From NCBI GenBank assembly GCA_003105015.1, contig PQAF01000037.1, positions 4,583-68,582 of the forward strand: 64,000 nucleotides of DNA. The letters run 5' to 3'. Below are positions 13,852-28,824 of the stretch, one piece after another. Numbering within the stretch: position 1 is the first letter of the stretch; every line of letters starts with the position of its first letter. Position numbers and translations under genes: made by a program. The notes under the pieces are model-generated. The model ran no database searches. It was not told where the DNA came from and was given only the letters and a program-made list of their open reading frames with translations. Origin of the DNA: Rhodocyclales bacterium (GTDB lineage Bacteria; Pseudomonadota; Gammaproteobacteria; Burkholderiales; Rhodocyclaceae).

Positions 13852-14649
13852 TTACTTTCCCTTGAAGGCCGGCATGCGCTTCTCCATGAAGGCGGTCACG
13901 CCCTCGCGGTAGTCCTCGCTGCGGCCAAGCGTGCGCTGGGTGTCGCGTTCCAGGTCGAGCTGCTGCTCGAGCGTGTTGTGCGGGGAAGCATACAGCGAGC
14001 GTTTGATGGCCGCATAGGCGAGCGGCGGACCCTGCGCGAAACGGGCGGCCAGCGCCTCGGCTTCGATCATCAGGATTTCATCGTCCACGCATTTCCAGAT
14101 CAGCCCCCAGGCCTCGGCCTGCTCACCGGTCAGCTTGTCCGCAGTCAGCACAAGTCCCATGGCGCGCGCCGTGCCGGCCAGTCGCGGCAGGAAGTAGCTG
14201 CCGCCGCAATCCGGCCCCAGGCCAAGCTTGCTGAAGGCCTGGATGAACACCGCCGAGCGGGCAGCGAGGACGATGTCGCAGGCGAAGGCCAGGTTGGCAC
14301 CGGCACCGGCGGCGGCGCCATTGACTGCGGCAATCACCGGTAGAGGCAAGGCGCGCAGTGCCAGCACCAGCGGTTTGTAATAGCTCTCGATCGAATGGCC
14401 CAGATCGGGTGGAGGTGAACCGGGCGGCATGATGCGCTCGGCCAGATCCTGGCCTGTGCAGAAGGCACGGCCGGCGCCGCTCAGGATCAGGGCGCGGGCG
14501 CCCTCCGCCTGCGAGCGTTCGATGGCCTGGCGCAGTTCGCCATGCATCGCCGCGGTGAAGCTGTTCAGCTTGTCCGGGCGGTTCAGCGTGATGCGGGCGA
14601 CGCCGTCGCGGCATTCATAGAGCACATCGCTCATGGGCAATTCGGCCAT
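13852..14649 (-). CDS. paaG: 2-(1,2-epoxy-1,2-dihydrophenyl)acetyl-CoA isomerase (crotonase fold)
   Basis: TLNRPDKLNSF, GRAFCTGQDL, GAGANLAFACD, PDCGGSYFLPRL. Start may be the second Met (14634). Confidence 0.9.
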   Translation of the reverse strand: MAELPMSDVLYECRDGVARITLNRPDKLNSFTAAMHGELRQAIERSQAEGARALILSGAGRAFCTGQDLAERIMPPGSPPPDLGHSIESYYKPLVLALRALPLPVIAAVNGAAAGAGANLAFACDIVLAARSAVFIQAFSKLGLGPDCGGSYFLPRLAGTARAMGLVLTADKLTGEQAEAWGLIWKCVDDEILMIEAEALAARFAQGPPLAYAAIKRSLYASPHNTLEQQLDLERDTQRTLGRSEDYREGVTAFMEKRMPAFKGK

Positions 14650-17675: not shown

Positions 17676-17930
17676 TTTGCAGACCTTGGGCAATGACTGA
17701 AATGCCTTCAAATTTGCGGCCAAGAAATATTTGACTATCTTCATGTTTGCCTGTAAGAATTACGATTAAATTGCTGTTTCTACGCAGGTTGGTCGGCTTT
17801 AAGGGTATGCTTGCAGCCTGCGGCATAACGTTTCAAGCTGTGCGCGAATGTGTTGCGGGTCGGGTGTCCGCATGCGCACGGTTGCTTCTCCAATAAAGAC
17901 AAAATATTCGGCAGGAGAGGACAGCGCAGC

Positions 17931-20513
17931 GTGTCAAAGACTTTCTGGAAAACCGATTGGTTCATCGGCGTTGTCGTGAGCGTGGTCATGCTCTTTGCAG
18001 GCAGCGGCGAATTGCTGCAGAGCCTGGAGCGCAAGGCCTACGACCTTGGCGTCGGTGCAGTCTCTCGAGAACCAAGCAGCAAGATCGCCGTCATCGCAAT
18101 CGACAAGCAGAGTATCGACAACCTCGGCCGTTGGCCCTGGTCGCGCGAAGTGCATGCAAAGATGATCGACGGACTGGCGGCCGCCAAGGCCAAGGTTATC
18201 GCTTCATCCATTTTCTTCTCCGAGCCCCAGATCGATCCCGGGCTCGCCTACATCAACAAGCTGATCGAACTCTACGGCCAGGCCGGTGGTGCGCCGCTGA
18301 CGGGTGCGCCGGAGGCGCTGGCGGCCCAGTTGCCTCCCTTGGGGCAGTTCGGCCCGGTGTTGGCCGAGGCTGAACAGAAGCTCAATAGCGACCGACGCAT
18401 GGGCGAATCGGTCGCCAAGTCGGGCAATGTCGTCCTGCCGATGCTGTTTCGGCTCGGGGAGCCGCGCGGGAGGCCGGACAGGCCCTTGCCGGACTTCATC
18501 AAGAAAAATGCGATTTCCCAAGTCGAAAAAGGCGAGGAGGCGCCGCTTCTTACCTCTGACGTGGAGGCACCGGTCGTCGAGGTGCTCGGCCTCAGCGCTG
18601 CGGCAATCGGCCATCTCAACGTCAATCCCGACGTGGATGGCGGCATACGTACCGAGCCGCTGGTGCTGGCCCATTTCAACGAAATCTACCCCTCCCTTTC
18701 CCTGATGATCGCGGCCAAGAGCCTCAATCTCGGCGTCGCCGACATCAAGGTCAAGCTGGGCGATTCGGTAAGGCTGGGCAATCTGAAGATCGGCACCGAC
18801 CCGGTCATGCAGATGAATACCTTCTTCTACAAGGATCACGAGGGCAAACCTGCCTTCCAGGTGGATTCGTTCTTCGACGTGACCAGCGGCAAGATCCCCC
18901 TGGACAAGTACAAGGACAAGATCGTACTGATCGGACCGACGGCCGCCGGTATCGGCAGCATCTTCGTTACGCCCGTGTCGCCAGCCATGCCGGCAGTGCT
19001 GATGCAGGCGCATACCGTGTCCAGCATCCTCCAAGAGCATTTCTTCGTCGTTCCGACATGGGGCTGGATCGTCGAGCGGGTGGCCTTCCTTCTGGTGGCC
19101 GTCTACCTCATCGCGCTGCTGCCGCGCCTCAAGGCAGGCATGGGGGCGGGCGTGACCGTGGGCCTGTTCGTAGTCCTGGTGGCGGCGCATTTCGTCCTCA
19201 TGACGACGCAATTGATGTGGCTGCAACTCATGGTGCCAGCAACCTTGCTGTTGGTGGGCCATGCCCTGCTGACCACCAAGCGCTTCCTCGTTACCGAACG
19301 CGGCAAGGAGAAATCGGAGGCCGAGTCGGCCGAGTCGAACCGCATGCTGGGCCTGGCCTTCCAGGGCCAGGGCCAGCTCGACATGGCCTTCGACAAATTC
19401 CGCAAGTGCCCGATGGACGAGGCCGTGATGGAAAACCTCTACAACCTGGGACTGGACTTCGAGCGCAAGCGCCAGTTCAACAAGGCCGAGTCGGTTTTTC
19501 GCTACATGGCTGATTTCAACCCGAAGTTTCGCGACCTGGAAACACGGCTGAATCGGGCCAAGGCCATGTCGGAGACTGTGATGCTGGGCGGCGGCGGGCG
19601 ATCGACCGCACAGGGCACCATGATTCTCGAGGGCGGTCAGGTGGAAAAACCCATGCTTGGCCGCTATCAGGTCGAGAAGGAACTCGGCAAGGGCGCCATG
19701 GGCGTGGTGTACCTTGGCCGCGATCCGAAGATCAACCGCGTCGTGGCCATCAAGACCATGGCGTTGTCGCAGGAGTTCGAGGAAGACGAACTCAAGGATG
19801 TGAAGGAGCGCTTTTTCCGGGAGGCTGAAACGGCAGGCCGCCTGAATCACCCGAACATCGTGACCATTTTCGATGCCGGCGAGGAACATGACCTGGCCTA
19901 TATCGCCATGGAATTCCTCAAGGGCAAGGATCTGGTCCCATACACCAAGACCGGCAACCTGATGCCGCTCGCCAAAGTGATGGACATAGTCGCCCGCGTC
20001 GCCGATGCGCTTTCCTACGCCCACCAGAACAGCGTGGTCCATCGTGACATCAAACCGGCCAACATCATGTACGAACCGGAGTCCGATGCGGTCAAAGTGA
20101 CCGATTTCGGCATTGCCCGCATTACCGATTCGTCGAAGACCAAGACGGGCATGGTGTTGGGCACGCCCAGCTACATGTCGCCGGAACAACTGGCCGGCAA
20201 GAAGATCGACGGTCGCTCCGACCTTTTCTCCCTCGGCGTCATGCTCTACCAGATGGCTTGCGGCAAGCTGCCCTTCGAAGGCGATTCGATGGCCCAGTTG
20301 ATGTTCAAGATCGCAAACGAACCGCACCCCCACATCCGCGAGTTCAATCCGCAGGTGCCGGAGTGTCTGGCGGCGATCATCGACCGGGCGCTGGCCAAGG
20401 ACAATGCACAGCGTTACCAGACCGGCGCCGAAATGGCGGCCGACTTGCGTGCCTGCATGGGCTTGAGCACGGGCGGAGGGGCACCTTCGCCGCAGGTTGA
20501 TTTCAATCTTTGA
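17931..20513 (+). CDS. CHASE2-domain membrane Ser/Thr protein kinase (Hanks type)
   Basis: GTG 17931 after AGGAGAGG. N-terminal TM, CHASE2-like region (IAVIAIDKQSIDNLGRWPWSR...KIVLIG), three TMs, TPR-like helices, then LGKGAMGVVY, VAIK, HRDIKPAN, DFG. Confidence 0.93.
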   Translation: MSKTFWKTDWFIGVVVSVVMLFAGSGELLQSLERKAYDLGVGAVSREPSSKIAVIAIDKQSIDNLGRWPWSREVHAKMIDGLAAAKAKVIASSIFFSEPQIDPGLAYINKLIELYGQAGGAPLTGAPEALAAQLPPLGQFGPVLAEAEQKLNSDRRMGESVAKSGNVVLPMLFRLGEPRGRPDRPLPDFIKKNAISQVEKGEEAPLLTSDVEAPVVEVLGLSAAAIGHLNVNPDVDGGIRTEPLVLAHFNEIYPSLSLMIAAKSLNLGVADIKVKLGDSVRLGNLKIGTDPVMQMNTFFYKDHEGKPAFQVDSFFDVTSGKIPLDKYKDKIVLIGPTAAGIGSIFVTPVSPAMPAVLMQAHTVSSILQEHFFVVPTWGWIVERVAFLLVAVYLIALLPRLKAGMGAGVTVGLFVVLVAAHFVLMTTQLMWLQLMVPATLLLVGHALLTTKRFLVTERGKEKSEAESAESNRMLGLAFQGQGQLDMAFDKFRKCPMDEAVMENLYNLGLDFERKRQFNKAESVFRYMADFNPKFRDLETRLNRAKAMSETVMLGGGGRSTAQGTMILEGGQVEKPMLGRYQVEKELGKGAMGVVYLGRDPKINRVVAIKTMALSQEFEEDELKDVKERFFREAETAGRLNHPNIVTIFDAGEEHDLAYIAMEFLKGKDLVPYTKTGNLMPLAKVMDIVARVADALSYAHQNSVVHRDIKPANIMYEPESDAVKVTDFGIARITDSSKTKTGMVLGTPSYMSPEQLAGKKIDGRSDLFSLGVMLYQMACGKLPFEGDSMAQLMFKIANEPHPHIREFNPQVPECLAAIIDRALAKDNAQRYQTGAEMAADLRACMGLSTGGGAPSPQVDFNL

Positions 20514-20596
20514 GAATATATGGACCCCCACGCTCACATTCGATCGCTGCCCCCCGAGGGGGCGCATGCCTTCCTTGGGACGGCCCGGCGGGAGGC

Positions 20597-21421
20597 ATGA
20601 TGGATCTCAGCCAGGTTCTGCAAATAGTCAGCCGCTCGGATGCCGGCATGGTGCGCTCGCACAATGAGGACGCCGTTTTTGCGAATGCCGCCTGCGGCTT
20701 GGCCATCCTGGCCGACGGGATGGGGGGGTATAACGCTGGCGAGGTCGCAAGCGGCATGGCGACAACCCTGCTGGGCAGCGAAATCGAGAAGGCCTTCGCG
20801 AAAACGGAACCCCACCAGCTCGACGCCGCCGGCAAGCTGCATGCCCACAGCGTCCTTGAGGCAGAAATCGCCCGTGCCAACACGGCGATCTACCAGGCGG
20901 CGCAGAGCCAGCCCCAGTATGCCGGCATGGGCACGACCCTGGTGGTCGCCCTGTTCTACGACAACATGATGACGGTCGCGCATATCGGCGATTCCCGGCT
21001 CTATCGCCTGCGCGGGGGCGAATTCCAGGCGATCACGCGCGATCATTCCCTGTTGCAGGAGCAGATAGACAGCGGCATGATTACGCCGGAAGAGGCGCGC
21101 CATTCGCAGAACAAGAACCTGGTTACCCGGGCGTTGGGTGTGGACCCGACGGTCGAGCCGGAGATCCGCGATTACGATACGATGCCGGGAGACCTTTACC
21201 TGTTGTGCTCCGACGGGCTCAATGACATGGTCGAGGACGAGGAGATCGCCCTCACCCTGCAGGCCCTGTCCGCCAACCTCGAACTGGCGGCGACGCAGCT
21301 GATTCAGACGGCGAACGATAGCGGGGGGCGGGACAATGTTTCGGTAGTGCTGGTGCGCATTGTGCGCGAATATCCGGCGGCGCGCGGCTGGTGGGCGCGA
21401 CTGCTGCAATGGTTCAAGTGA
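20597..21421 (+). CDS. PP2C-type Ser/Thr phosphatase (Stp1/IreP family)
   Basis: SDAGMVRSHNED, ADGMGG, HIGDSR, CSDGL, GGRDN; C-terminal amphipathic WWARLLQWFK. Confidence 0.95.
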   Translation: MMDLSQVLQIVSRSDAGMVRSHNEDAVFANAACGLAILADGMGGYNAGEVASGMATTLLGSEIEKAFAKTEPHQLDAAGKLHAHSVLEAEIARANTAIYQAAQSQPQYAGMGTTLVVALFYDNMMTVAHIGDSRLYRLRGGEFQAITRDHSLLQEQIDSGMITPEEARHSQNKNLVTRALGVDPTVEPEIRDYDTMPGDLYLLCSDGLNDMVEDEEIALTLQALSANLELAATQLIQTANDSGGRDNVSVVLVRIVREYPAARGWWARLLQWFK

Positions 21422-21441: not shown

Positions 21442-22200
21442 ATGGCTGCTAAGTTGATCCTAAGCATGGATGGCCTGGTGCTCAAGGAAATTCCGCTCAC
21501 CAAAGAGCGGACGACGATCGGGCGCAAGCCGCACAACGATATCCAGATCGACAATCTGGCCATCAGCGGTGAACATTCGGTGATCGTCACGATCCTCAAC
21601 GATTCGTTTCTCGAGGACTTGAACAGCACCAATGGCACTTACGTGAATGGCCAGCCCATCAAGAAGCATTTTCTGCAGAACAACGACGTCGTCGAATTGG
21701 GCAAATACAAGCTCAAGTACATCAATGAGACTCCGACGCAGACGACGGCTGCGGATTTCGAGAAGACGATGGTGCTGCGGCCCGACCTGATGAAGAAGAC
21801 GGCGGAGCAGACGGCTGCCAAGTCATCCTCGATGAGCGATACGCAGGTCGGCATGAAGGCTATAGATACCCATGCCGGCATGGCGCCGCCTGCCCAAGCG
21901 ACTCCCCCGGCAACGGCGCCCGCTCCGCAGGCGATGCCGACAGGGGCCATCCAGATCCTGACGGGCGCGAATGCCGGGAAGGAACTGGAGTTGACCAAGA
22001 ATCTCACCACCCTGGGTAAACCGGGCGTGCAGGTGGCTGTCATCACCCGCCGGCCGCACGGCTACTTCATCACCCATGTCGAAGGGGCCAACTTCCCGGT
22101 CGTCAATGGCACTGCTCTGGATGCCCATCCGCGCGAGTTGAAGGATCATGACGTCATTGAGCTGGCCGGCATCAAGATGGAGTTCTTCCTCAAAAGCTGA
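21442..22200 (+). CDS. FHA-domain protein (N-terminal canonical FHA, Pro/Ala-rich linker, C-terminal FHA-like domain)
   Basis: IGRKPHNDIQI...ISGEH...DLNSTNGTYVNG; second repeat TTLGKPG...FPVVNG...LKDHDVIELAG. Confidence 0.9.
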   Translation: MAAKLILSMDGLVLKEIPLTKERTTIGRKPHNDIQIDNLAISGEHSVIVTILNDSFLEDLNSTNGTYVNGQPIKKHFLQNNDVVELGKYKLKYINETPTQTTAADFEKTMVLRPDLMKKTAEQTAAKSSSMSDTQVGMKAIDTHAGMAPPAQATPPATAPAPQAMPTGAIQILTGANAGKELELTKNLTTLGKPGVQVAVITRRPHGYFITHVEGANFPVVNGTALDAHPRELKDHDVIELAGIKMEFFLKS

Positions 22201-22313: not shown

Positions 22314-24545
22314 TTGAAGCAGTACATCGTCAGGTACGCACTGGGGTTCGTGGTATTGCTGGTTCTGCTAGGCCACGCGGCGCGTTTCTACGAGCTCGGC
22401 TTCATCAACCGGCTCGACGCCATCATCTACGACACCAAGGTTCGCCTTACCATGCCGAAGGGCATGGATGATCGTGTCGTCATTCTCGATATCGATGAGA
22501 AATCCCTCGGAGAGATCGGTCGATGGCCCTGGGGGCGGGATCGGGTTTCGCAACTCGTCAAGAAACTGTTCGATCAACACGGGGTCACCATTCTCGGCTT
22601 TGACGTCGTCTTCGCCGAGCCGGATGACAGCTCCGGATTGAAGGTGCTTGAAGGGCTGTCCAAGGGGGATCTCAAGGACAGCGCGCACTTCCAGGCAGCG
22701 CTCAAGGAACTGCGACCACAGCTGGATCATGACGGGCGTTTTGCGGAAACTCTCAGGGGACGGCCTGTGATTCTCGGCTATTACCTTTCGGGACGAAGCG
22801 ACGGCGTGTCCAGCGGCGCATTGCCTCCGCCTGTACTGCCCGAAGGCAGCTTCACGGGGCGCAGCATTCCTTTCACCGTCTGGACCAATTACGGCGGCAA
22901 TCTGGCCGAGTTCCAGAAAGCGGCCCTTTCCGGAGGGCACTTCAATCCCCTGGTCGACTTCGATGGCATCTCGCGTCGAGTTCCCCTCCTGGCCGAATTC
23001 AAGGGCGAATACTATGAAGCGCTGTCGCTGGCCATGGTGCGGGCTCTGATCGGCCAGCCGAAGGTGGTGCCCTGGTTTCCTGAAGACCGCTGGTTTTCCA
23101 GCAAGAGCTACCAGGGCATGGAAGCCATCGACCTGCCGACCGCGCGCGGCACGCTGCGCGTCCCGGTGGACGAAAATGTTGCCGCCCTGATCCCCTACCG
23201 CGGCTACCAGGGCAGCTATCGATACTATTCGATTGCCGACATCATGGCGGACCGGATCAAGCCGGGCGAACTCAAAGGCAAGATTGCTCTGATCGGCACG
23301 ACTGCGCCGGGCCTGCTCGACCTGCGCGCGACTCCCGTAGGGGAGGCTTATCCCGGGGTGGAAATTCATGCCAATCTGATCACAGGCATGCTGGACGGAG
23401 CGATCAAGCACAAGCCGTCCTATGTGCTGGGGGCCGAAGTGGTTCTGCTTCTGCTGGCCGGCCTCGTGATGGTGTTGCTGCTGCCGCTGCTATCGCCGCT
23501 ACGGGCAACCCTCGCATCCATCGTGCTGTTGCTGTTCATCCTGACGGTGAACCTCGTCTTCTGGGAGTACGGCAACCTGGTGCTGCCGCTCGCTGCCGCC
23601 GTGCTGCTGGTACTGACTTTGTACGCGCTCAACATGTCGTACGGCTATTTCGTCGAGTCGCGGACGAAGCGGCAGTTCACCGAGCTGTTCGGGCAGTACG
23701 TGCCGCCGGAACTGGTGGAGGAAATGAGCCGCAACCCCGAGTCCTATAGCATGGAAGGCCGCAAGGCCGAGCTGACCGTGCTGTTCTCGGACATACGTGG
23801 CTTTACAACGATATCCGAGGGGCTTGGGCCGGACGAACTGACCCACCTGATGAACGAGTACCTGTCGGCCATGACCGAAGTGGTGCGCAGGAACCGGGGG
23901 ACCCTGGACAAATATATCGGGGACGCCATCATGGCCTTCTGGGGCGCTCCGGTGAGCGATGCACAGCATGCCCGCCATGCCGTCGTCACGGCGATGCAAA
24001 TGCAGGCCGCCCTGCCCGCCGTCAACAAGACGTTTGCTGCAAAGGGTTGGCCCGAAATCAAGATTGGCGTCGGCGTCAACACGGGAGACATGACCGTGGG
24101 CGACATGGGGTCGGCCGTGCGCAAGGCTTATACTGTCATGGGCGATGCGGTAAACCTCGGTTCGCGGCTTGAGGGCATTACCAAGCAGTACGGGGTCGGC
24201 ATCCTGGTGGGCGAGACTGCGCGCAAGGCCATCAAGGATATCGTCTTCCGGGAAGTGGACCGGGTCCAGGTGAAAGGCAAGGAAGAGCCTGTTGCCATCT
24301 ATGAGCCGATCGGCCTCGAAGGCGAGGTAGACAAGGCAACACAGGAAGAGCTCAAGCTGTGGAACCAGGCCTTGCGCCACTACCGCGCCCAGGAATGGGA
24401 TCAGGCGGAGGTGGCGCTCTTGAACTTGTCGCGACTGGCGCCCGGACGGGCGCTGTACGGCAAGTATATGGAACGGATTGCCCACCTGCGCAGGGAACCG
24501 CCCGAGCCGGGATGGAAAGGCGTGTGGAAGTTCGAGACCAAGTAA
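22314..24545 (+). CDS. CHASE2-domain class III adenylate cyclase
   Basis: CHASE2 (ILDIDEKSLGEIGRWPW), three TMs, cyclase motifs LFSDIRGFT, LDKYIGDAIMAFW, YTVMGDAVNLGSRLE (Lys/Thr specificity pair typical of ATP-using class IIIb enzymes). Confidence 0.92.
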   Translation: MKQYIVRYALGFVVLLVLLGHAARFYELGFINRLDAIIYDTKVRLTMPKGMDDRVVILDIDEKSLGEIGRWPWGRDRVSQLVKKLFDQHGVTILGFDVVFAEPDDSSGLKVLEGLSKGDLKDSAHFQAALKELRPQLDHDGRFAETLRGRPVILGYYLSGRSDGVSSGALPPPVLPEGSFTGRSIPFTVWTNYGGNLAEFQKAALSGGHFNPLVDFDGISRRVPLLAEFKGEYYEALSLAMVRALIGQPKVVPWFPEDRWFSSKSYQGMEAIDLPTARGTLRVPVDENVAALIPYRGYQGSYRYYSIADIMADRIKPGELKGKIALIGTTAPGLLDLRATPVGEAYPGVEIHANLITGMLDGAIKHKPSYVLGAEVVLLLLAGLVMVLLLPLLSPLRATLASIVLLLFILTVNLVFWEYGNLVLPLAAAVLLVLTLYALNMSYGYFVESRTKRQFTELFGQYVPPELVEEMSRNPESYSMEGRKAELTVLFSDIRGFTTISEGLGPDELTHLMNEYLSAMTEVVRRNRGTLDKYIGDAIMAFWGAPVSDAQHARHAVVTAMQMQAALPAVNKTFAAKGWPEIKIGVGVNTGDMTVGDMGSAVRKAYTVMGDAVNLGSRLEGITKQYGVGILVGETARKAIKDIVFREVDRVQVKGKEEPVAIYEPIGLEGEVDKATQEELKLWNQALRHYRAQEWDQAEVALLNLSRLAPGRALYGKYMERIAHLRREPPEPGWKGVWKFETK

Positions 24546-24561
24546 CATAAGAGATAAAGAA

Positions 24562-25329
24562 ATGAAGGTCAGAGTTCTCGGCTGCAGCGGCGGGATTGGC
24601 GGACGTCATCTGCGCACGACCTCGCTGCTGGTCGACCACGACATCCTGATTGACGCAGGAACCGGTGTGGGGGATCTGTCGCTGGCCGAACTGGCCTTGA
24701 TCGACCATGTCTTCCTCACCCATTCGCATCTCGACCATGTTGCCTGTCTGCCGTTCATGGTCGACACCGTGGGCGACATGCGCAACAAGCCGCTGACGGT
24801 ACATGCCACCCAGGCCACGCTGGAAATCATCCAGGCGCACATCTTCAACTGGGCCATCTGGCCCGACTTCTCGGAGATTCCCAACCGCGAAAAGCCGTTC
24901 ATGCGCTACGCTGAGTTGAAGACCGGCAAGACGGTGAAGGTGGACGGGCGCGAGATTACCCCGCTTCCGGCCAATCACACCGTACCCGCCGTGGGTTATC
25001 GCATCGATTCCGGCGAGGGCAGTCTGGTGTTCAGCGGCGATACGACGGTGTGCGATGAGTTGTGGAAAGTCGTGAACAAGATCCGCAACCTGCGCTACCT
25101 CATCATCGAAACCGCCTTTTCCAATCGCGAGCGGCAGCTTGCCGTCGCCTCGAAGCATCTATGCCCCGATATGCTGCGTGAGGAGCTGCTCAAGCTGCAG
25201 CGCGAGGCGGATATCTACATCACTCACCTCAAGCCCGGGCAGATCGAGCTGACCATGCAGGAAATCGAAGAGTTCATAGGGGAATACAGGCCGCGCATGT
25301 TGCAGAACAACCAGGTGTTTGAGCTGTAA
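24562..25329 (+). CDS. 3',5'-cyclic-nucleotide phosphodiesterase, metallo-beta-lactamase fold
   Basis: LGCSGGIG, IDAGTG, LTHSHLDHV (HxHxDH), NHTVP, FSGDT; sits directly after the cyclase. Confidence 0.85.
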   Translation: MKVRVLGCSGGIGGRHLRTTSLLVDHDILIDAGTGVGDLSLAELALIDHVFLTHSHLDHVACLPFMVDTVGDMRNKPLTVHATQATLEIIQAHIFNWAIWPDFSEIPNREKPFMRYAELKTGKTVKVDGREITPLPANHTVPAVGYRIDSGEGSLVFSGDTTVCDELWKVVNKIRNLRYLIIETAFSNRERQLAVASKHLCPDMLREELLKLQREADIYITHLKPGQIELTMQEIEEFIGEYRPRMLQNNQVFEL

Positions 25330-25339
25330 GGGTTCGCGA

Positions 25340-26407
25340 ATGGGCATGCAATCCATTTCCACGGAAATATTGAGGCGGCTCGAGCCGCTGGGGGCTCTGT
25401 CGCCGGACAGCCTTCGCGAGATATCCCGCATGTGCTATGCAGAAAAAATCAGCCGGAATCTCGACCCGTTTCGGCTGCAGGGCATGCAGGGCCAGGCTGT
25501 CTATCTCGTCAAGGGCGAATTGAAGATTGATTACCCGGATTCCAGCTCCGAAATCCTGGTCGGCGGGACAGAGGCCGCCGTTCGCCCGCTGGACAAACGG
25601 AAACCCGCATTTACGGGGGCCAAGGCGATTACGGACGTCGAGTTGATCCGAATCGACGAGGAACTGCTCGATATCATGCTGACATGGGACCAGCTGGCCG
25701 CGCCGCAGGCCACAGCCGGCGCGAAGAAAACCCCGGATGCGGCGGATCGTACGGATTGGCGCACGATGTCCGGCATGTTTGCGGCAGAGAACCTGACGCA
25801 CGGCATATTTGCCAGCCTGCCGCCGGCCAACATCGAGGCGCTGTTCGCACGCTTCCACCGCATCAAGGTGGCGCGCAACGAAGTGGTCATCAGAGAAGGG
25901 GAGGATGGGGACTTCTATTACGTCATTGAAAGCGGGCGTTGCACGGTGTTCCGCCAGATCGGGGGCGCCAGCGTCGGACTGGCCGAGTTGAAGGCCGGCG
26001 ATGCTTTCGGAGAGGAAGCGTTGGTGGCAAACACCAAGCGAAACGCGACGGTTGCAATGAAAACCGATGGTGTCCTGTTGAGGCTGGCGAAGGCGGATTT
26101 CATCGAGTTGCTGAAAGAACCCCTGATGCATCGCATTTCGCGTCCGGAAGCGGACAAGAAAGCGGCTGCCGGAGCCGTCTGGCTGGACGTCCGCTTTGCT
26201 GCCGAATACAACACCGACAAGCTGCCGGGGGCGATCAACATTCCGCTCAACGAGATACGCAACCTGTTCGGCTCCCTCGATCGCCAGAAGGAGTATATTG
26301 CCTACTGTCAGAGTGGGCGGCGCAGTTCGGCGGCGGCATTTCTGCTCTCCCAGCGTGGCTATAAGACTTATCTGCTCGAAGGCGGGCTTCGCGGCAGTGC
26401 GACATAA
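25340..26407 (+). CDS. Tandem cNMP-binding domains fused to a C-terminal rhodanese domain
   Basis: Degenerate first cNMP domain; second has REGEDGDFYYVIESG...FGEEALVANTKRNATV; rhodanese LDVR...LPGAINIP...YCQSGRRS...LEGG. Confidence 0.85.
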   Translation: MGMQSISTEILRRLEPLGALSPDSLREISRMCYAEKISRNLDPFRLQGMQGQAVYLVKGELKIDYPDSSSEILVGGTEAAVRPLDKRKPAFTGAKAITDVELIRIDEELLDIMLTWDQLAAPQATAGAKKTPDAADRTDWRTMSGMFAAENLTHGIFASLPPANIEALFARFHRIKVARNEVVIREGEDGDFYYVIESGRCTVFRQIGGASVGLAELKAGDAFGEEALVANTKRNATVAMKTDGVLLRLAKADFIELLKEPLMHRISRPEADKKAAAGAVWLDVRFAAEYNTDKLPGAINIPLNEIRNLFGSLDRQKEYIAYCQSGRRSSAAAFLLSQRGYKTYLLEGGLRGSAT

Positions 26408-26443
26408 GGCACGCATCCCAATGGCTCAGAAGGGAAATCTGGT

Positions 26444-28819
26444 ATGAGTGCGGTGCTTGGTTCGACTCAGGATGCTGGCAGCGGAGGCGATGTCGCCAGC
26501 CGTCTGTCTTTCTTCAAGAACCTCCAGACAGTCACCAACAAGATCCATGCGACGGCCAATATCGACGAGATCATGCTCGAGTTGTCGCAGGACATCTGTA
26601 CGCTGTTCAACGCGGATCGGCTGACCATCTACTCGATCAGCGAGGACAAGTCCTCCATCGTCTCCAAGGTCAAGACCGGCCTCAATTCCTTCAAGGACCT
26701 GCGGCTGCCGATTGCCGACCAGAGCATCGCAGGGTTTGTCGCGCTATCGAAGAAGCTGGCAAATATCAGCGACGTCTACGACGAGGCGGAACTGAAATCG
26801 CACACGCCCAGCCTGCGCTTCCTGCAGGAGGTGGATAAGCGTACGGGCTACCGCACCAAGCAGATGCTGGTGGCCCCGATCACCGAGGCGCAAAGCGGCG
26901 AGTTGCTTGGGGTGGTCCAGCTCATCAACAACAAGGCCGGGGCGCCCTTCTCCCAAGTGGCGGAGGAGGGGGTAAAAGGACTGTGCGAAACACTGGCCAT
27001 TGCATTCACCCAGCGTCAGAAGCCGGCGCATGTCGTCAAATCGAAATATGACCATCTGGTCGCCGATGCCGTGCTGTCGGCAGCCGAATTTGATCTTGCG
27101 ACGCGTTCCGCGCGGCGCAAGGGCCTCGACATCGAAGAGGTGCTGCAGCACGAATTCCAGGTCAAGCCGGCGGCGATCGGTTCGGCCCTGTCGAAGTTCT
27201 TCGGCGTGCCTTACGAGCCGTACAAGGGCGACCGCATCAAGCCGATGGACCTGTTGAGAAACCTCAAACGGGAATACGTCGAAGAGAATCAGTGGCTGCC
27301 GATCGAGGAAACGAAGGAAGGCGTCGTGATCCTGACGATGGATCCCGAGCAGGTGAAGAGCTCGCGCATCGTCAACAACGTCTTTCCGAAGAGCAAGCTG
27401 GTCTTTCGCGTCACCACCATCCCGGAATTCAAGCAGACGATCGACCAGTTCTATGGCGCGGCCGCCGATTACGGCTCCGTCGGCGATCTTCTTTCCGGCA
27501 TGGACGAAGGGGAGGAGGGCGGCGGCGAGCTGACCGGCGAGGATATCTCGGCGGCGGCGGACAACGAACTCGTCAAGCTCGTCAACAAGATCATCATCGA
27601 TGCCTATAGCCAGGGTGCATCGGATATTCACATCGAGCCGCGGCCTGGCAAGGACAAGACCATCATCCGCTTCCGCAAGGACGGCTCGCTGGCGAACTAT
27701 ATCGAGATTCCGGCAAGCTACCGCAATGCCCTCGCAGCGCGCATCAAGATCATGTGCGATCTGGACATATCCGAGCGTCGCAAGCCGCAGGACGGCAAGA
27801 TCAAGTTCAAGAAATTCGGTCCGCTCGATATCGAACTGCGCGTGGCGACGATTCCATCGGCCGGCGGCGTCGAGGATGTGGTCATGCGCATCCTCGCCGC
27901 CGGGGAACCGATTCCGCTCGAGAAGCTCGGCATCCTGCCGCACAACCTGGAGCGGTTGAAGAACGTGGTCGAGAAGCCTTATGGACTGTTCTTCGTTTGC
28001 GGTCCGACCGGTTCGGGAAAGACAACCACGCTGCACTCCGTTCTGAAGCACCTGAATACGCCTGACACGAAGATCTGGACGGCAGAGGACCCGGTCGAGA
28101 TCACGCAGAAAGGCCTGCGGCAGGTCCAGATCAACCGCAAGGCCGGACTGGATTTCGCCACCATCATGCGCGCCTTCCTGCGTGCCGATCCGGACATCAT
28201 CATGGTCGGCGAGATGCGCGACAAGGAGACCGTCTCCATCGGCATCGAGGCGTCGCTGACCGGCCACCTGGTATTCGCCACGCTGCACACCAACAGTGCG
28301 CCCGAATCGATCACCCGCCTGCTCGACATGGGCATGGATCCCTTCAATTTTGCCGACGCTCTGCTCGGCATCCTGGCGCAGCGCCTGGGCAAGCGCTTGT
28401 GCGGCGAATGCAAGGAAGCCTACACCGCGTCGGGGGAGGAGATGAAGAGCCTGCTCACCGAGTACTGCGAGGAACTGCTCAACACCAGCACCTTCAAGAA
28501 GGATGCCAAGGCAGGCTACGAGACGGTGTACAAGGAGTGGGCGAAGAATTACGCCGACGACAAGGGGCAGTTCAAGCTCTACAAACCGAAGGGCTGCGAG
28601 AAATGCAACAACACGGGCTACAAGGGGCGTGTCGGTTTGCATGAATTGATGGTGGGAACGGATAACGCCAAGAAGCTGATCCAGGAGCATGCCCGGGTTG
28701 CAGAACTGGTCGCCTGCGCCCTGGAGGACGGCATGCGCACCCTGAAGCAGGATGGTATCGAGAAGGTGCTGCAGGGCATCACCGACATGAAGCAGGTTCG
28801 GGCGGTTTGCATCAAGTAA
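26444..28819 (+). CDS. GAF-fused PilB/GspE-family secretion ATPase
   Basis: N-terminal GAF (DKRTGYRTKQMLVAPI...GVVQLINNK), T2SSE_N-like region, ASDIHIEP, Walker A GPTGSGKT, TAEDPVE, DPDIIMVGEMRD, LHTN, and CxxC...CxxC (CGEC, CEKC). Confidence 0.92.
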   Translation: MSAVLGSTQDAGSGGDVASRLSFFKNLQTVTNKIHATANIDEIMLELSQDICTLFNADRLTIYSISEDKSSIVSKVKTGLNSFKDLRLPIADQSIAGFVALSKKLANISDVYDEAELKSHTPSLRFLQEVDKRTGYRTKQMLVAPITEAQSGELLGVVQLINNKAGAPFSQVAEEGVKGLCETLAIAFTQRQKPAHVVKSKYDHLVADAVLSAAEFDLATRSARRKGLDIEEVLQHEFQVKPAAIGSALSKFFGVPYEPYKGDRIKPMDLLRNLKREYVEENQWLPIEETKEGVVILTMDPEQVKSSRIVNNVFPKSKLVFRVTTIPEFKQTIDQFYGAAADYGSVGDLLSGMDEGEEGGGELTGEDISAAADNELVKLVNKIIIDAYSQGASDIHIEPRPGKDKTIIRFRKDGSLANYIEIPASYRNALAARIKIMCDLDISERRKPQDGKIKFKKFGPLDIELRVATIPSAGGVEDVVMRILAAGEPIPLEKLGILPHNLERLKNVVEKPYGLFFVCGPTGSGKTTTLHSVLKHLNTPDTKIWTAEDPVEITQKGLRQVQINRKAGLDFATIMRAFLRADPDIIMVGEMRDKETVSIGIEASLTGHLVFATLHTNSAPESITRLLDMGMDPFNFADALLGILAQRLGKRLCGECKEAYTASGEEMKSLLTEYCEELLNTSTFKKDAKAGYETVYKEWAKNYADDKGQFKLYKPKGCEKCNNTGYKGRVGLHELMVGTDNAKKLIQEHARVAELVACALEDGMRTLKQDGIEKVLQGITDMKQVRAVCIK

Positions 28820-28824
28820 GCGTC

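Follow-up and report, generated by a model that had tools for sequence, protein, structure and literature searches.

Architecture of the CNB-rhodanese gene

The gene analysed here lies at positions 25340 to 26407 of a 64,000-nt stretch of contig PQAF01000037.1 from a Rhodocyclales bacterium (GCA_003105015.1); this whole stretch is referred to as the window. The gene encodes a protein of 355 amino acids with two cyclic nucleotide-binding (CNB) folds, the first without the cassette Glu and Arg, followed by a rhodanese domain, and it is present as one copy in the window's genome. The protein is an uncharacterised, predicted CNB-regulated effector at a fixed place in an undescribed pilus-associated signalling operon. 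A first-pass annotation made from the sequence alone had described tandem CNB folds followed by a Cys-active rhodanese, and this architecture was borne out by Pfam, fold searches and motif positions; both strings that it had quoted were located, FGEEALVANTKRNATV at residues 223–238 and CQSGRRS at residues 323–329. The gene and its parts are as follows.

25340..26407, + strand: pseudoCNB-CNB-rhodanese gene, 355 aa, stop codon included (open reading frame and translation, Pfam, thousands of full-length homologues)
25340..25699, + strand: degenerate CNB-fold domain, residues 1–120, with motifs DPFR, VGG, KAITD and TWDQ (AlphaFold2, Foldseek, Pfam scores of relatives)
25700..25783, + strand: low-confidence inter-domain linker, residues 121–148, ending D-W-x-x-M-S-G (pLDDT 42–57; conservation)
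25784..26125, + strand: canonical cyclic nucleotide-binding domain, residues 149–262, with a hinge/lid helix at 251–262 (Pfam, PDB matches, secondary structure)
26006..26053, + strand: phosphate-binding cassette FGEEALVANTKRNATV, residues 223–238 (motif, conservation)
26126..26395, + strand: single-domain rhodanese, residues 263–352 (Pfam, PDB relatives)
26306..26326, + strand: active-site loop C323-Q-S-G-R-R-S329 of the six-residue sulfurtransferase type (conserved)

The ATG at 25340 (MGMQSIS...) is likely to be the true start, because homologues begin at the same position and an AAGGG lies 9–13 nt 5' of it; an in-frame TTG at 25319 is a possible alternative upstream start. A minus-strand open reading frame (ORF) at 25274–26416 (380 aa) was rejected as a high-GC shadow, all homology being in the plus frame. 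Conservation was assessed over 80 species-representative loci from Rhodocyclaceae, other Burkholderiales and Nitrosomonadales-type betaproteobacteria, in an alignment of 81 sequences. Even in the linker, W140 of the D-W-x-x-M-S-G motif is kept in 79 of the 81 orthologues.

Conserved nucleotide and sulfurtransferase sites

The second CNB domain matches Pfam cNMP_binding (PF00027) over residues 176–259 (E 2.7e-20; 72.5 bits against a cut-off of 27.5), and the PDB sequence matches of this region were the CNB domains of cGMP-dependent protein kinase (PKG), the regulatory subunit of protein kinase A (PKA-R), Epac, CRP and MloK1. Its cassette fits the pattern G-E-x-A-L-x5-R-x-A-[TS], in which the Glu binds ribose and the Arg phosphate, as G224-E225-E-A-L-VANTK-R234-N-A-T. 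Residues E225, R234, N235 and A236 are invariant in 81/81 orthologues, and the form FGEEAL-x5-RNA[TS] was present in 79 of the 80 loci. The Asn that follows the cassette Arg, to which the first-pass annotation had drawn attention, proved to be a hallmark of this family; it occurs in every orthologue and in none of the consensus cassettes of the 30 CNB families tabulated in an earlier survey (PMC2246266). The predicted ligand of the domain is probably cAMP, because the neighbouring cyclase has the Lys/Thr pair of adenylate cyclases (see below). As the rules of nucleotide selectivity have so far rested on Ala, Thr and Ser, the invariant Arg-Asn-Ala cassette provides a natural test case.

The rhodanese domain matches Pfam Rhodanese (PF00581) over residues 271–351 (E 7.8e-15; 55.6 bits against a cut-off of 22.2). 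Its best PDB relatives are the rhodanese domain of a CoA-persulfide reductase (8a56, 2.5e-11) and PspE (2jtq, 1.4e-10), with further sequence matches to polysulfide reductase rhodanese domains and YgaP. Its fold is that of PspE, GlpE and the rhodaneses of CoA-persulfide and polysulfide reductases (2jtq, 8a56, 3nta, 3icr), and like theirs its Cys loop has six residues, some of them basic, CNAGRQS of PspE aligning with CQSGRRS of the window protein. Unlike PspE and GlpE, the domain is fused behind two CNB domains, and it scored far below the NCBIfam cut-offs of the PspE/GlpE equivalogs (NF007627, 45.4 versus 102; NF001195, 22.5 versus 102). A phosphatase-type rhodanese of the Cdc25/Acr2 (arsenate reductase) kind was rejected, the loop having six residues and not the seven of CX5R.

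The Cys loop takes the form CQ[ST][GE]RRS in all 80 loci, with C323, R327, R328 and S329 invariant in 81/81 orthologues, and the alignment indicates strong purifying selection on both the cassette and the Cys-loop sites. The rhodanese is predicted to be more than a scaffold, because a purely structural domain could be expected to shed its Cys, and here the Cys is retained. A cyclic nucleotide-gated sulfurtransferase or persulfide sensor, one of the functions first suggested for this protein, is plausible from its sequence: its Cys loop does not vary, conservation of the rhodanese equals that of the CNB domain (mean identity to the window protein 64% and 65% respectively, compared with 51% for the N-terminal domain and 35% for the linker), and in the secondary structure of the model only about five residues lie between the CNB C-helix and the rhodanese.

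The first domain is a CNB fold with a degenerate cassette

The N-terminal 147 residues scored 11.8 bits against PF00027 (E 0.25), under the Pfam gathering score, and an hhalign comparison of this domain with the second CNB domain gave a weak match (E 0.034, probability 1.5%). A separate AlphaFold2 model of residues 1–130 (pLDDT 82, pTM 0.72) retrieved CNB folds only among the Foldseek top 50 of the PDB (SthK, PKG II CNB-A, GlxR, MloK1, CRP and DNR), with matches at E ~1e-6 and TMq 0.55–0.65. A profile of the domain, which found 1248 representatives among 1.84 billion proteins, gave just five matches to PDB sequences (E 0.013–0.9), all of them CNB-fold proteins; and the N-terminal domains of more distant relatives exceed the cNMP_binding gathering score on their own, at 28–36 bits. 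Homology to CNB domains was thus settled by the fold search and the transitive Pfam matches, and not by hhalign.

In a structure-based register, G76-T77 replaces the G-E of the cassette, position 77 being S, T, H, C or L among orthologues. The cassette Arg falls at residues 90–91, where position 91 is variable (F, P, I or V) and is Arg in 3/81 sequences. The first domain should therefore be a degenerate pseudo-CNB from which canonical nucleotide binding is not expected, because other residues fill the cassette Glu and Arg positions in the alignment and model. The description of this region as a first cyclic nucleotide-type domain thus stands for its fold and fails for its binding site.

Distribution and related architectures

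In an even sample of the same order, the gene was found in 27 of 301 genomes and 19 of 143 genera, a patchy distribution. The wider CNB-rhodanese family is large, comprising thousands of sequences with related forms in other proteobacteria. Matches to the N-domain profile always lie at the protein N-terminus, in proteins of ~350 aa, in proteins of 450–690 aa (some with an extra CNB domain) and in giants of 1275–1795 aa, and most of the 450–690-aa and giant proteins keep both an RNA[TS] cassette and a C[DQR]TGxRS loop. The recurrence of the three-domain cassette as a unit in other architectures argues, at the level of sequence, that pseudoCNB, CNB and rhodanese form one evolutionary unit in which CNB and rhodanese act together.

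In the giants (P0221, P0227, P0235 and P0242–P0269) the pseudoCNB-CNB-rhodanese cassette is at the N-terminus. The three that were scanned with Pfam (P0221, P0235 and P0249) have a long middle region and then a C-terminal FGE-sulfatase domain, the middle region of P0235 (L081:7487-12874) giving coiled-coil-like Filament/GAS matches. The neighbourhood of this one giant, at locus L081, consists of housekeeping genes, dut, coaBC, radC and rpmB/G.

Another family, at L082:9612-17196, has two tandem CNB-rhodanese paralogues (~37–39% identity to the window protein) followed by an ankyrin-repeat protein, an ORF and a canonical pilB-pilC pair; this gives a further, independent hint of a link with the pilus ATPase. 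At L085:6135-10734 a distant paralogue is divergent from genes for a cNMP_binding-GGDEF-EAL protein and a CHASE2 cyclase, another small node of cAMP and cyclic di-GMP (c-di-GMP) signalling. Beyond this one pilBC and this one CHASE2-cyclase/cNMP-GGDEF-EAL neighbourhood, no conserved context was found for the distant paralogues (33–39% identity).

A conserved eight-gene signalling cluster

The cluster consists of eight genes on one strand. The CNB-rhodanese gene is the sixth of them, separated by 10 nt from the upstream phosphodiesterase gene and by 36 nt from the downstream PilB-like ATPase gene. The other features of the cluster in the window are as follows.

17731..17760, + strand: weak sigma-70-like promoter match upstream of the kinase gene (consensus scan; fewer matches than in shuffled sequence)
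17850..20513, + strand: CHASE2 Ser/Thr protein kinase, first gene (Pfam, synteny)
20510..21421, + strand: PP2C phosphatase (Pfam, synteny)
21442..22200, + strand: FHA-domain protein (Pfam, synteny)
22314..24545, + strand: CHASE2 class III cyclase, adenylate-cyclase type (Pfam; Lys in DKYIGD, Thr in AYTVMGD)
24478..25329, + strand: metallo-beta-lactamase (MBL)-fold phosphodiesterase, class II cyclic nucleotide phosphodiesterase/RNase Z-like (Pfam Lactamase_B_2, PDEase_II)
26444..28819, + strand: GAF-MshEN-T2SSE (PilB-like) ATPase (Pfam, NCBIfam, synteny, covariation)
28807..30480, + strand: GAF-HD-GYP phosphodiesterase (Pfam HD_5, GAF; synteny)
30661..31122, + strand: type IV pilin gene that closes the unit in the window (Pfam Pilin, N_methyl)
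31142..31168, + strand: intrinsic-terminator-like hairpin of 10 pairs (8 G-C) and a T run (consensus scan only)

The gene order is widely kept among the 80 loci, with the MBL phosphodiesterase before the CNB-rhodanese gene in 78/80, the ATPase after it in 73/80, PP2C in 69/80 and the cyclase in 68/80; most of the misses are contig ends. The eight-gene order is retained even in orthologues of only 42–43% identity, and the cluster is a conserved betaproteobacterial signalling operon, most likely controlling a type IV pilus motor. Of 55 loci, 20 have a pilin ORF after the HD-GYP gene. The hairpin at 31142–31168 is the strongest plus-strand match between 17.4 and 31.4 kb, two others having 5–6 pairs.

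By residue-by-residue alignment, the substrate-specifying Lys and Thr of the cyclase are the pair found in two proven adenylate cyclases, CyaB of Pseudomonas aeruginosa (3r5g) and CyaC of Spirulina (1wc0); Synechocystis Cya2 (2w01), a guanylate cyclase, has Glu and Gly at these positions.

The MBL-fold neighbour bears on a reading in which this protein and the rhodanese would be a persulfide dioxygenase-rhodanese couple for sulfide detoxification, as in CstB or the PRF fusions, with the CNB domains merely regulatory. Persulfide dioxygenases of the MBL fold often have a rhodanese fused to them or encoded alongside, and PDB 3tp9, a 'beta-lactamase and rhodanese domain protein', was among the rhodanese matches. 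The MBL protein itself, however, was rejected as a persulfide dioxygenase; it matches PDEase_II (2.5e-11), with yeast PDE1 (4ojv) as its best PDB match and RNase Z also found, and it gave no ETHE1-type PDB match, a glyoxalase II/ETHE1-type model reaching only E 0.009. We regard this couple as barely credible.

Covariation with the products of the cluster

Covariation was assessed from distance matrices of 40 sequences (39 loci with all eight genes and the window), as partial correlations corrected for the mean of the remaining proteins of the cluster. The best partner of the N-domain was the C-terminal domain of the ATPase (partial r 0.47), that of the CNB domain was ATPase N2 (0.43), and the rhodanese was best matched by ATPase N2 and the HD-GYP catalytic part (0.36 each). 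Pairs of the ATPase motor region with all three domains were within the top 12 of 108 inter-protein pairs. No covariation was seen with the kinase (partial r -0.29 to +0.13), nor with the ATPase GAF domain (-0.27 to +0.14); as the latter is the physically nearest part of the ATPase, adjacency fails to explain the covariation. Two co-varying groups emerged, one of kinase, cyclase and HD-GYP GAF, and one of CNB-rhodanese, ATPase motor and HD-GYP catalytic part. The covariation therefore points, weakly and in direction only, to the ATPase and away from the kinase.

Within the first group, the CHASE2 domains of the kinase (17850–20513) and the cyclase (22314–24545) gave the top inter-protein covariation (partial r 0.63), and values of 0.49–0.58 were obtained among the kinase domain, the catalytic domain of the cyclase and the HD-GYP GAF, which suggests that kinase, cyclase and HD-GYP GAF are a second functional module.

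These results bear on the proposal that the protein is an inhibitor like the PKA regulatory subunit, holding the CHASE2 Ser/Thr kinase inactive until a cyclic nucleotide binds. The kinase is indeed encoded in the same operon, and the tandem CNB-A/B regions of PKA-R and PKG (PDB 4z07, 1rgs, 6rsx), likewise two consecutive CNB folds, were the best structural matches of the full model: the AlphaFold model of all 355 residues (pLDDT 79, pTM 0.53) aligned with such regulators (PKG I-beta CNB-A/B, PKA-R) over 260–300 columns at E ~1e-15. Unlike PKA-R and PKG, however, the window protein has no dimerisation/docking domain or inhibitor sequence, its first CNB lacks the Glu and Arg, its CNB domains are separated by a disordered linker of ~28 residues, it ends in a rhodanese and it has no AGC kinase partner. 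The fold begins at residue 8, so there is no docking domain or pseudosubstrate linker, and the sole RRxS string is the rhodanese loop itself. The co-encoded kinase is a membrane receptor Hanks kinase and not an AGC kinase, and its kinase domain gave partial correlations of -0.09, -0.29 and +0.01 with the three domains. Several loci keep the phosphodiesterase, CNB-rhodanese and ATPase genes where the kinase was not detected, some of them through contig truncation. The likeness to PKA-R thus holds as a resemblance of fold and not as family membership; with no N-terminal extension, a degenerate first CNB and no covariation with the kinase against 0.43–0.47 with the ATPase, release of an inhibited kinase is disfavoured and we consider it very improbable.

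Covariation with the ATPase would also fit a plain cAMP receptor or adaptor, in which the rhodanese would be a structural or anion-binding docking module and cAMP would control protein–protein interaction or localisation, as proposed for CbpA of P. aeruginosa. CbpA is reportedly a soluble cAMP receptor of non-CRP type in which an intact CNB comes after a degenerate one, a tandem layout to which that of the window protein may be likened, and is said to have no rhodanese domain. Inactive rhodanese homology domains are common interaction modules. Non-catalytic rhodaneses, however, normally lose the Cys, whereas here the Cys and both loop Arg are kept in 81/81 orthologues and in distant architectures; we therefore think this reading rather unlikely.

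A proposed cAMP-gated sulfurtransferase

What was observed directly is the domain architecture, a cassette and a Cys loop that are both intact, and a gene order that is conserved. Our best explanation of them, to which we give a probability of roughly 45%, is that the protein is the dedicated CNB-type cAMP receptor of the operon, acting as a cAMP-gated sulfurtransferase or persulfide carrier that docks on the PilB-like ATPase. On this model cAMP would be made by the neighbouring CHASE2 cyclase and removed by the neighbouring MBL phosphodiesterase, and would bind the second CNB domain via E225 and R234. Binding would shift the hinge/lid helix at 251–262, which runs almost straight into the rhodanese; because this helix ends about five residues from it, the nucleotide would be expected to reposition or unmask the Cys loop of the rhodanese. 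The position C-terminal to the CNB C-helix is that of the output in MtPat, Bd1971, CRP, PKG and Epac. The helix shift would alter the accessibility or reactivity of Cys323, which would form the persulfide. The N-terminal pseudo-CNB would bind no nucleotide and would serve as a docking or dimerisation module. Its target would most probably be the motor part of the PilB-like ATPase, and the state of cAMP and sulfur would thereby be relayed to type IV pilus assembly.

Several points weigh against this explanation. For every member of the family, cAMP binding, sulfur transfer and the partner are all inferred. An Asn after the cassette Arg is unprecedented in family consensus motifs, and the ligand could be cGMP or another nucleotide. 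The predicted coupling of CNB and rhodanese depends on the short linker between them, in a full-length model of pTM 0.53, and the sulfur acceptor of the rhodanese is hypothetical. Mirror-tree covariation is a weak predictor, operon genes share a history and the pairs are not independent. Finally, the distant paralogues (33–39% identity) lie in unrelated housekeeping contexts, one giant has no signalling neighbours, and the ATPase link may be restricted to this orthologue group.

The main rival concerns the direction in which sulfur acts. In this alternative the protein would be a coincidence sensor, with persulfidation or oxidation of Cys323 by sulfane sulfur, thiosulfate or redox stress as one input and cAMP, read by the CNB domain, as the other; only the doubly modified protein would engage its partner, via the N-terminal pseudo-CNB, and sulfur would not be passed on. 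The invariant Cys loop is in keeping with this, and the covariation of N-domain and ATPase fits an N-domain that acts as output. SoxB, which is present in the window's genome, was found in 21 of 27 carrier genomes compared with 134 of 274 non-carriers, an enrichment (odds ratio 3.7, Fisher p 0.0045) calculated with no phylogenetic correction. However, six of the carriers have no SoxB, the enrichment disappears for cluster-type orthologues (14/20, p 0.11), and CNB followed by rhodanese is the usual order of sensor and then output. The tie to a Sox-bearing organism drawn in the first-pass annotation is thus weak; a strict link to Sox was rejected, and the modest enrichment is at most a tendency. 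The sequence cannot separate the coincidence sensor from the gated sulfurtransferase, although we judge the sensor to be somewhat unlikely.

A more specific and decidedly doubtful form of the gated sulfurtransferase is a cAMP-gated protein persulfidation switch, in which the Cys323 persulfide would be given to, or taken from, a cysteine of the PilB-type ATPase, for example in its Zn-binding tetracysteine region. If true, sulfur or redox status, together with an envelope cue sensed by CHASE2, would be coupled through this switch to the assembly of type IV pili. The switch would then be the first case in bacteria of a cyclic nucleotide linked to enzymatic sulfur transfer in signalling, and the persulfidation cassette would be reused on giant coiled-coil/FGE-sulfatase proteins.

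Relationship to known systems

In P. aeruginosa cAMP controls type IV pili. To our knowledge, very few bacterial cAMP effectors beyond CRP-type transcription factors are understood (MtPat, Bd1971, CbpA and channels). Like the mycobacterial cAMP-gated protein acetyltransferase Pat (MtPat/KATmt) and Bdellovibrio Bd1971 (CNB-EAL, PDB 6hq3), the window protein has its CNB domain ahead of an enzyme domain, the C-terminal lid helix presumably providing the allosteric link, and like them it is a non-transcriptional cAMP effector, here a predicted one. It belongs, however, neither to these two families nor to those of PKA-R, PKG and CbpA. It differs from both in that its output is a rhodanese and not GNAT or EAL, in the extra degenerate CNB in front and in the Asn after the cassette Arg. 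The MtPat model NF058543 matched residues 156–263 at 38.6 bits against a cut-off of 460, which denotes similarity at the level of the domain only.

In the 2007 survey of CNB domains by Kannan et al., the 'Other_bacterial' family includes bacterial CNB domains attached to rhodanese homology domains (PMC2246266). This is a catalogue entry only, which does not describe the three-domain unit, its RNA[TS] motif, the operon or a function; it was the sole relevant item found in the literature, in which we found no functional study of any CNB-rhodanese protein or of the eight-gene cluster.

The family combines nucleotide and sulfurtransferase sites that are both under strict selection with a fixed place in an operon of phosphothreonine, cAMP and c-di-GMP components and a pilus motor. 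Should cAMP gate the transfer of sulfur, or vice versa, the protein would represent a new class of cyclic-nucleotide output and would bring a new input to the control of type IV pili.

Variation in the cluster and its surroundings

Some loci depart from the usual gene content. Seven Burkholderiales loci (L020, L021, L025, L027, L033, L048 and L061) keep PP2C, FHA, phosphodiesterase and CNB-rhodanese genes but have no CHASE2 cyclase gene in the usual position, and in L020 the ATPase is also absent between the CNB-rhodanese and HD-GYP genes. In L014, L016, L043, L045, L062 and L069 (Sulfuritalea, Azospira and other betaproteobacteria) the pilin ORF has only 59–61 aa and lies ~160–470 nt after the HD-GYP gene; these short ORFs resemble truncated pilins of the Geobacter PilA-N type.

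Positions 14000–47000 of the window have a G+C content of ~0.58–0.62 (0.53 at 42–44 kb) compared with 0.64–0.73 in the flanks. This lower-GC stretch holds the signalling cluster, the pilin gene and downstream glycosyltransferase and methyltransferase genes; the sucCD-cluster synteny, however, is common to many Rhodocyclaceae. After the pilin terminator, at 31198–33135, is an ORF of 645 aa with a weak C-terminal TPR match only, for which matches of 58–68% identity were found in three of the 80 loci.

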